Source: Escherichia coli (GTDB lineage: Bacteria; Pseudomonadota; Gammaproteobacteria; Enterobacterales; Enterobacteriaceae). Taken from it: a stretch of 64,000 bases of DNA. A model generated the notes under the pieces. The model did not search any database. It was not told the DNA's origin and saw only the letters and a program-made list of their open reading frames with translations. The stretch is from the NCBI RefSeq assembly GCF_016903815.1, contig NZ_CP069973.1; one strand, given 5' to 3'. This document shows, piece by piece, positions 30,493 through 31,629 of the stretch; within the stretch, counting starts at the first letter, position 1, and every line of letters starts with the position of its first letter. The translations under genes and the position numbers were made by a program.

Positions 30493-31413
30493 TTACCTTC
30501 CCGCTCTCCAGGCCACATCCCGCAGCGCCGATCGCGCAGCCTCACTGATACCACCTAACTGAAAAAATCCGTGGATAACGCCAAGGTAGCGTTGGCAGGT
30601 GCATTGCACTCCTTGCCCTGTCATGCGGTGATACAACGCTTCACCTTCATCGCAAAGTGGGTCGTATTCAGCGGTAATGATATGTACAGGTGGCAAGCCA
30701 TTGAAATCATCGCGCCAAAGAGGGCTGGCTTCAGGATGCCTGCGTTCAATGCCTGGCAGATACATCTCAAAGCCGCTCAGTAAAGTGTCGCGTGTGATGA
30801 TGTAATCGTGACCATTGCGTATGTAGCTTTCGAAATGCGCAGTCGCATCAAGCATGGGATAAATTAAGATGAGTTGTGCCGGTTGCCACTCGCCAGCACG
30901 CTTTAATCGCAAAGCAGTTACCAGCGCCAGATGTCCGCCCGCACTGTCACCGGCAAGAGTTATCCGTTGTTTATCAACGCCGAGTCGTTCGGCGTGTTGC
31001 CAGACTAATTCTGCACCTCGTTGCGCATCATCATGGGCGGCGGGGAAAGTCTGTTCCGGTGCCAGCCGATACTGGACGGCAATAACCCGACATTGCCCGT
31101 AATAGGCTAACTGGCGCAGCTGGTTGTCGTGAGTTGCGAACCCGCCGCTAACAAAACAGCCACCGTAGTAATAAATTATCGTCGGGAGTAATGTCGGGGC
31201 ATTCAGCGGTGACACTATTCGTAAGATCATCCCTTCAAGTTCGATAGTCTGAATATCTACCCGCGTTTCTGTCTCACCCGCAAGGACAGCGCTGGCGATA
31301 TAGCCCTCCCTGCGCTGCGCAATACTTTGTTGACGCGATGAGGGGCGACCCGCAGCGATAAACTCTTCGACTAACTCTGCAATTCCTTTTTCCAGTGCCA
31401 TAGTAGAACTCAT
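30493..31413 (-). CDS. Alpha/beta-hydrolase esterase/lipase, hormone-sensitive-lipase (Aes-like) family
   Basis: GDSAGG nucleophile elbow, oxyanion-hole-like YGGCF (HGG-type) motif, C-terminal His (GVIHGF); start uncertain (ATG 31413 or 31401, GTG 31476). Confidence 0.8.
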   Translation of the reverse strand: MSSTMALEKGIAELVEEFIAAGRPSSRQQSIAQRREGYIASAVLAGETETRVDIQTIELEGMILRIVSPLNAPTLLPTIIYYYGGCFVSGGFATHDNQLRQLAYYGQCRVIAVQYRLAPEQTFPAAHDDAQRGAELVWQHAERLGVDKQRITLAGDSAGGHLALVTALRLKRAGEWQPAQLILIYPMLDATAHFESYIRNGHDYIITRDTLLSGFEMYLPGIERRHPEASPLWRDDFNGLPPVHIITAEYDPLCDEGEALYHRMTGQGVQCTCQRYLGVIHGFFQLGGISEAARSALRDVAWRAGR

Positions 31414-31629
31414 TTTGCTGTATGAATGTACAGTTTTATACACCCGTTTTTGCTGGATGGATACAGGGAAATTCACGGGCGTGAAAAATCTGGAAAGCGC
31501 CTCGCAAATGTAAAGACAAACCCGGCAGAGACGTGGTTTTGCTGGAGCACTATCAGTAAGCTAGTGGTTTCAAGGGTACGTCAATGACGTACAAAAAGGA
31601 TTGTTACTCTAAGCCAATGGCGTATAATT

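Follow-up and report, generated by a model that had tools for sequence, protein, structure and literature searches.

The question raised by this locus is whether a lone esterase gene on the Escherichia coli chromosome, with an altered residue in the oxyanion-loop motif of its family and a weak Shine-Dalgarno (SD) sequence, is imported cargo, a gene in decay, or a functional gene under a control of its own. The gene lies on the minus strand of a 64,000-nt stretch of DNA (contig NZ_CP069973.1 of assembly GCF_016903815.1; hereafter the window), in a region of the chromosome, dtd-fabY(yiiD) ... yiiE-fdhE, that is 100% identical in strain 7/2 and in many clinical isolates. A preliminary description had recognised there an HSL-type (hormone-sensitive lipase) esterase, and had proposed that it could be either half of a lipid-modifying pair carried on an islet or a decaying gene. 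The explanation that we consider probable is that the gene is an ancestral occupant of the fdhE-fabY position, is transcribed singly under the control of LexA, and encodes a 302-amino-acid (aa) cytoplasmic HSL carboxylesterase starting at ATG 31401. Two changes would have occurred in the Escherichia lineage, of His79 to Tyr in the HGG motif and of the SD sequence from AAGGA to AATGA; these probably lower the output or activity of the esterase but do not abolish it, since the protein is still under purifying selection.

Assignment to the HSL family, originally made from the GDSAGG nucleophile elbow and a C-terminal His, is borne out by a match to Pfam PF07859 (Abhydrolase_3) that extends over profile positions 1-209 of 210 (E=5e-68; 229.4 bits against a cut-off of 25). 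Among proteins of solved structure it matches best the HSL-family esterases Est8 (4ypv), PestE (2yh2) and EH1AB1 (6i8d), at E ~1e-49. An AlphaFold2 model (predicted local distance difference test, pLDDT, 96.1; predicted template-modelling score, pTM, 0.94) has N-terminal helices at residues 5-16 and 27-41, and in Foldseek it superimposes on the solved HSL esterases 5jd4, 4ypv and 6i8d with template-modelling (TM) scores of 0.92-0.95. The preliminary description had called for alignment to HSL-family esterases, and this confirms the triad as Ser153, Asp247 and His277. In a 48-sequence alignment Asp247, His277, Gly151 and Gly155 are invariant, while Asp152, Ser153, Ala154 and Gly156 are conserved in at least 90% of members. 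Of the features that mark family IV, the protein has the Abhydrolase_3 domain, the GDSAG elbow, the order of triad residues and the capped alpha/beta-hydrolase core; in place of the HGG(G) motif it has the variant YGGC, in which both of the first two Gly are retained, but in all else its membership is unambiguous. Est8, LAE6 (5jd4), EH1AB1, PestE and EST2 (1evq) all share the alpha/beta-hydrolase fold with an N-terminal cap, and resemble the E. coli protein at TM 0.89-0.95 and 33-36% identity, with GDSAG and the Ser-Asp-His order in common, but they carry HGGG[FW], of which the His is replaced by Tyr and the third Gly by Cys in E. coli. To our knowledge, SOS regulation is known for none of these solved esterases.

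By analogy within the family, Ser153 of the GDSAG motif would attack the ester carbonyl, with His277 and Asp247 relaying the proton, and the NH groups in the backbone of Gly81, Cys82 and Ala154 would hold the oxyanion. The curated NCBIfam models that score best are LipP1 and chloramphenicol hydrolase (EstDL136, 6aae), and both remain below cut-off: NF058653 (LipP1) gives 235.1 bits against 350, with profile positions 3-297 of 300 aligned to residues 32-322 of the long open reading frame (ORF), and NF033149 (chloramphenicol hydrolase) gives 162.5 bits against 500. NF007547 (Aes) gives 139.3 bits against 389, and the esterase thus belongs to none of the LipP1, chloramphenicol hydrolase and Aes equivalogs. 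Aes itself (4krx / 3ga7; E ~6e-29) is of the same family and host species, and is likewise cytoplasmic, but it is a distant paralog encoded at another locus and bearing an HGGGF motif; we know of no LexA box at aes. No signal peptide is evident in MALEKGIAELVEEFIAAGRPSS. The product is an ordinary, uncharacterised member of HSL family IV, and the RefSeq annotation, alpha/beta hydrolase, is correct; the matches listed in a spread sample of E. coli genomes are all annotated in the same way. In other members of the family, a preference for longer acyl chains goes with Phe, more than with Trp, in the position that follows the motif (PMC10099132), which hints that with Phe83 in this position the enzyme might prefer medium-chain to acetyl esters.

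A LexA box was not among the features noted in the preliminary description. Scored on a position weight matrix (PWM) made from 18 documented E. coli sites (PMC3009722 Table 4), which in leave-one-out scoring span 6.6-27.8 bits with a median of about 20, the sequence immediately before the esterase coding region reaches 20.3 bits, against 11.8 bits for the next best match in the whole window. All of the 29 other upstream regions compared, from more than 10 genera, carry a box of 16-23 bits that ends 12-15 nt before the ATG, in the pattern CTG[TG]A[TC]AT..A[TA]ACAG and just after a conserved TATAA(A/C). The alignment columns of the box hold 1.65 bits of information, compared with 0.6-0.7 bits in the flanks. 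No LexA box was found before a 53%-identical homolog from an unrelated genomic context (best 4.8 bits). Among five E. coli alleles, which include those of the B2 strains CFT073 and ST131, of O103 and of the window strain, the operator and the -10 element are kept throughout, bar single-base changes in O103. The segment CTGTATCCATCCAG (~31453-31466) was considered as a second LexA box and was rejected because its spacing is CTG-N8-CAG and not N10. In Enterobacter sp. kpr-6, a LexA box of 23.0 bits precedes a gene (locus 4968-5477) with only 31% identity to residues 1-150 of the esterase; here the operator may have stayed while the gene behind it was replaced or diverged strongly.

In E. coli the box adjoins TATAA(A/C), and 14 nt separate it from the ATG. 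From the conservation of these elements a promoter is predicted here, with a weak -35 hexamer; a consensus promoter scan passed over the site because of that weakness. LexA bound to an operator abutting the -10 element would keep the monocistronic esterase gene off, and DNA damage, through activation of RecA and self-cleavage of LexA, would allow the esterase to be made. K-12 is not known to carry the esterase gene, which has therefore escaped the classical SOS literature. A literature search found no report on SOS regulation of this gene in E. coli, and a paper on SOS in extraintestinal pathogenic E. coli makes no mention of it (PMC9621596).

LexA regulation of this ortholog group has already been published, for Salmonella. 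The gene STM14_4846 ('nlhH', a putative acetyl esterase; 930 nt, minus strand) is induced 15.1-fold by nalidixic acid in a LexA/RecA-dependent manner and has one SOS box, 13 bp from its ATG and with a heterology index of 7.63 (PMC8072944). The same box is shared with a divergent 312-nt gene, higB-2 (STM14_4847), from whose ATG it is 184 bp distant and which is induced 8-fold (PMC8072944). Orthology of nlhH with the esterase is supported by gene sizes, by the layout of the locus and by the C-terminus encoded by the nlhH fusion primer (WRVVSPSTGKMT, followed by the stop), which matches 309-aa members of the ortholog set; a match of the primer to the subsp. salamae loci was also sought and failed, because the 3' ends diverge. 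STM14_4846 / STM4032, whose close homologs are ~76-78% identical to the E. coli protein, has the same surroundings near fdhE and the same divergent 103-aa HigB-like gene as in E. coli, and the distance from the single LexA box to the ATG is 13 bp in Salmonella and 14 in E. coli. The differences are that the Salmonella protein has 309 aa against 302, that close homologs in the ortholog group read HGGCF, and subsp. salamae has a recognisable SD sequence, where E. coli has YGGCF and a mutated SD sequence, and that induction was measured in Salmonella and is predicted for E. coli. By analogy with Salmonella, then, we infer that the E. coli gene is under SOS control.

The distribution of the gene is not what would be expected of islet cargo, as which it was first described. 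An ortholog occupies the same position, following fdhE and converging on fabY, in Enterobacter hormaechei, Salmonella enterica (the loci compared being those of subsp. salamae and of one subsp. enterica assembly) and a Citrobacter-like organism, in each case without the gene for a 617-aa protein that neighbours it in the window; further orthologs come from Pseudocitrobacter, Superficieibacter, Lelliottia, Klebsiella, Kosakonia and Franconibacter. In CFT073 and ST131, too, the esterase gene lies directly beside fabY and the 617-aa gene is missing. The GC content of the esterase gene (51-53%) is like that of its core neighbours, compared with 34-45% for the 617-aa ORF. At least 80% of the length of the esterase is present in 2636 of 5426 complete E. 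coli genomes, whereas the 617-aa gene is full-length in 1061 of them, a 99-bp piece of it being left in many others. The esterase gene is therefore ancestral at the fdhE-fabY position of the Enterobacteriaceae, and the 617-aa gene a later insertion. Two of the 2714 esterase matches in the E. coli collection are on plasmids and not on chromosomes.

Nor is there sign of the decay that had been suggested. The ORF is intact, with 302 codons, in all five alleles, and none of the marks of a pseudogene was found in them: no frameshift, no premature stop, no lost catalytic residue and no neutral ratio of non-synonymous to synonymous substitution rates (dN/dS). The deepest pairs of E. coli alleles differ by 11-13 synonymous and 6-8 non-synonymous changes, giving dN/dS of 0.14-0.25, below neutrality at P 3e-5 to 1e-3. 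At 111 columns invariant among the orthologs, E. coli differs at three (H79Y, Y211F and, in some alleles, L228I), compared with 0-3 in other lineages, so there is no excess of E. coli substitutions at conserved sites. Between genera dS is saturated, and a branch-specific omega for the E. coli stem could not therefore be obtained. The gene is intact, is not a pseudogene, and is under purifying selection within E. coli; it is nevertheless dispensable.

The preliminary description also drew attention to YGGCF as an atypical oxyanion motif. The motif does stand in the HGGG position, YYYGGCFVSG aligning with Y[FY]HGGG[WF]V of the solved esterases, but only one residue of it is unusual: every ortholog outside Escherichia reads HGGCF, so that Cys82 is normal for the ortholog group, and it is the replacement of His by Tyr that sets E. 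coli apart. Among 145 diverse representatives of the family (clusters at 50% identity), 143 have His, and one, a 132-aa fragment, has Tyr; Cys occupies the fourth position in 13. Of the 2638 E. coli genomes that carry the gene, 2632 are 100% identical over a 69-nt stretch around the Tyr79 codon, and an exact match to the His version of this stretch was found in none of the 2638. Tyr79 is fixed in E. coli, and the exchange of His for Tyr is the real oddity of the motif.

The oxyanion in such enzymes is bound by backbone NH groups, those of the second and third residues after the His and of the Ala that follows the nucleophilic Ser, as in EstD11 (Gly76/Gly77/Ala145), SsoP1Est (Gly80/Gly81/Ala152) and E53 (G90/G91) (PMC7905190, PMC5070724, PMC8767022). 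Tyr79 itself would therefore not be a ligand, and Cys in place of the third Gly of the motif, contributing only its backbone, is compatible with function. Residue 79 would serve as a structural support of the oxyanion loop. A search of the literature for mutagenesis of the HGG histidine brought up nothing beyond results for the oxyanion ligands Gly and Ala. The H110F variant of a lipase was considered as a precedent and was rejected, since the enzyme is of a different family and the His is beside the nucleophile (PMC7823203). The occurrence of this change throughout a species amounts to a natural experiment on the role of a highly conserved histidine. Haruki et al. (FEBS Lett, 1999) reportedly mutated the corresponding residue of E. 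coli Aes, His103, and found that activity did not depend critically on it.

The start codon had been left open between GTG 31476, ATG 31413 and ATG 31401, with the gene drawn at its longest extent, 30493..31476 (327 codons counted from the GTG). All three codons are present as described, and it is also correct that none has a convincing SD sequence, the energies of the duplex with the 3' end of 16S rRNA being +0.4, +0.9 and -2.2 kcal/mol respectively. The ambiguity, on the other hand, does not persist, and the span is 30493..31401. The NCBI Prokaryotic Genome Annotation Pipeline (PGAP) starts the 302-aa protein WP_001306651.1 at ATG 31401; the sequence M[AVT]LEKGI begins there in every genomic ortholog recovered and in the 120 closest homologs, bar some that are longer or shorter by a few residues at the N-terminus; and no N-terminal extension of the 31402..31476 type occurs in the orthologs. 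On this comparative evidence the start at ATG 31401 may be taken as settled.

The weakness of the SD sequence is peculiar to Escherichia. In 25 orthologs the sequence AAGGA, AGGGA or AAGGT stands 6-9 nt before the ATG, with energies of -3.4 to -9.2 kcal/mol; weakest among the 30 sequences are those of the five E. coli alleles, at -2.2 or (O103) -1.0 kcal/mol. Comparison of the upstream regions of Citrobacter, ACAGCAAAAAGGATTTTACCATG, and E. coli, ACAGCAAAATGAGTTCTACTATG, points to a single G to T change that turned AAGGA into AATGA and in doing so also created the in-frame ATG 31413. Escherichia whittamii has the same change, and the weak SD sequence is the result of a loss in the Escherichia lineage.

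Several observations weigh against the explanation put forward here. The -35 hexamer is poor, the site was not called in the promoter scan, and the transcription start is itself a prediction. Because the SD sequence is the weakest of the 30 compared, very little of the protein may be produced, and because His is kept in 143 of the 145 diverse relatives, Tyr79 may cost substantial activity; expression of the gene in E. coli and catalytic competence of the Tyr79 form are predictions. The dN/dS values derive from just 19-21 differences per pair and from five alleles. Some 51% of complete E. coli genomes lack the gene, and the copy in E. whittamii is an internal-deletion relic (at ~3200-3400 of its own locus), in which the promoter, a LexA box of 17.7 bits and the SD-less leader are followed by MALEKGIAE and the last ~18 codons, so that what is left appears to be an orphan SOS-controlled promoter. 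Given this relic and the frequent absence of the gene, any benefit that it confers must be conditional.

Such observations lend some credit to the view that the E. coli copy is an inert relic, silenced by His79Tyr and loss of the SD sequence, and surviving only because too little time has passed. The near-universality of His in the family, the weak SD sequence and the many genomes without an intact gene are all in keeping with this. However, the ORF is unbroken, and at least 80% of its length is found in 2636 genomes; dN/dS is significantly below 1 between alleles that diverged after Tyr was fixed; conserved sites show no excess of substitutions; and operator and -10 element are retained in the five alleles, apart from the single-base changes in O103. 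A relic is therefore judged rather unlikely. Purifying selection in spite of an altered catalytic-loop motif could also mean that the protein has a mainly non-catalytic, regulatory role exerted through protein-protein interaction, with Tyr79 reflecting a relaxed need for catalysis, and the paralog Aes does regulate in this way, by its interaction with MalT. Against this role, which we think very improbable, E. coli strictly keeps the triad, GDSAG and GG, as would not be expected if catalysis were dispensable, and the esterase has no known interaction partner. A further proposal is that the Tyr79 enzyme has been kept under selection with a changed catalysis, whether in substrate range or in acyl-enzyme lifetime, and with lowered translation, the family as a whole acting on a small molecule related to DNA damage. 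This we consider distinctly unlikely. If it were true, the family might hydrolyse a genotoxic ester or carbamate, or, in the course of the SOS response, deacylate a metabolite or protein, and the SOS regulon would gain a chemical-detoxification arm that is invisible in the K-12 model, where the gene is absent.

The remaining alternatives concern the extent of the gene and its company. Translation might begin at ATG 31413 (306 aa) or GTG 31476 (327 aa) to give an N-terminally extended protein: both codons are in frame with no stop between them, and the alleles of the window, ST131 and CFT073 do have ATG 31413. That is hardly to be believed when an extra A (+1 nt) between GTG 31476 and the ATGs breaks the GTG frame in the CFT073 and Z0117 alleles, when O103 has ATA in place of ATG 31413, and when neither upstream codon has any SD sequence; moreover GTG 31476 is upstream of both the -10 element and the operator, the mutation of the SD sequence produced ATG 31413 incidentally, and the orthologs all start at the MALEKGI position. 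As to company, the esterase and the 617-aa protein were suggested to be a co-acquired lipid-modifying pair. The two genes are adjacent and, as originally stated, convergent, the 617-aa ORF ending at 30324 on the plus strand, and this ORF contains CKSAKDR, a CX5R-type motif, which strikes us as reminiscent of SopB/IpgD-type phosphoinositide phosphatases. The idea is already largely refuted by the distribution set out above: the 617-aa gene is absent from Salmonella, Enterobacter and Citrobacter, whose orthologs of the esterase share the fdhE-fabY position, and likewise from CFT073 and ST131, which have the esterase itself, and the two genes differ in genome counts and in GC content. Convergent genes, in addition, are not co-transcribed, and the identity of the 617-aa orphan as a phosphatase is itself unproven, so that a lipid-modifying pair has next to no probability. 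The practical value of the analysis is mostly one of annotation: the start is fixed, the islet pair is removed, and a gene carried by about half of E. coli genomes, CFT073, ST131 and O103 strains among them, is seen to be alive.

The fabY-yiiE interval of the window holds four genes, which in order are the 617-aa ORF (+), the esterase gene (-), a HigB/RelE-like ORF (+) and the gene of a NadS-type helix-turn-helix (HTH) antitoxin (+), the last two forming a toxin-antitoxin (TA) pair. Their coordinates, and those of the sites discussed above, are collected in the table.

Table. Positions, in the window, of the esterase gene, its regulatory and catalytic sites, and its neighbours
Feature	Position	Strand	Basis or remark
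Esterase coding sequence, 302 aa + stop	30493..31401	-	Exact PGAP span, WP_001306651.1 'alpha/beta hydrolase'
LexA (SOS) box AACTGTACATTCATACAGCA; core CTGT-N8-ACAG 31418-31433	31416..31435	-	20.3 bits on PWM
-10-like hexamer TATAAA abutting LexA box	31435..31440	-	TATAA conserved across orthologs
Candidate -35 TATCCA, weak (3/6)	31458-31463	-	
SD relic AAATGAG (Citrobacter, Pseudocitrobacter: AAAGGAT)	31409..31415	-	Upstream alignment
In-frame 5' extension of longest ORF (GTG 31476, ATG 31413); predicted non-coding: promoter, operator, 5' untranslated region	31402..31476	-	
YGGCF, Tyr79-Gly80-Gly81-Cys82-Phe83; Tyr79 codon TAC 31165-31167	31153..31167	-	At family HGGG[FW] oxyanion-loop position
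GDSAGG nucleophile elbow; Ser153 codon 30943-30945	30934..30951	-	Aligned to GDSAGG of 4ypv, 2yh2, 6i8d
Asp247, triad acid (YDPLCDEG)	30661..30663	-	Aligned to DPL motif of solved esterases
His277, triad base (GVIHGFF)	30571..30573	-	Aligned to catalytic His of solved esterases
Perfect hairpin, 16-bp stem, -35.1 kcal/mol, directly after esterase stop, between convergent genes	30456..30492	-	Without clear U-tract
617-aa ORF	28471-30324	+	Convergent with esterase
HigB/RelE-like 103-aa ORF, divergent from esterase	31630-31941	+	Toxin of TA pair 31630..32232
NadS/HTH antitoxin	31942-32232	+	Second gene of divergent TA pair

The hairpin that follows the esterase stop codon is likely to be the end of the esterase transcript or a stabiliser of its mRNA; the consensus promoter and terminator scan called neither this hairpin nor the esterase promoter. 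CFT073, one of the strains without the 617-aa gene, has a different, T-rich hairpin in the 63-nt spacer between the esterase gene and fabY. The 617-aa ORF is itself intact (604 aa from ATG 28510), and in RefSeq it has been split by PGAP into a pseudogene, 'hypothetical protein, incomplete', and a 'transposase' (WP_077634137.1). Its product gave no match in Pfam, NCBIfam or the PDB, and has homologs only in Escherichia/Shigella. Beyond it, the longest ORF of fabY is 329 aa (27105-28094), with a 4-nt overlap with dtd, while PGAP uses an internal start to give 313 aa (equivalent to 27153-28094); in other genomes, too, gene callers are divided between the two lengths.

On the other side of the esterase gene, the consensus scan placed a promoter-like site of the TA pair itself at 31601-31628. 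Immediately upstream of the esterase there is a slot that acts as a hot spot for TA modules, and its contents differ by organism: HigB-like (103 aa) and NadS/HTH (96 aa) proteins are encoded there in E. coli and S. enterica subsp. salamae, VapC(PIN) and ribbon-helix-helix (RHH) proteins in the Citrobacter-like organism and another Salmonella assembly, and the slot is empty in Enterobacter hormaechei. LT2 has a second TA module, sehAB, on the opposite side of the esterase (PMC3868539, a retracted paper used for gene order only). Whatever the TA content upstream, the LexA box remains with the esterase gene in every case examined.

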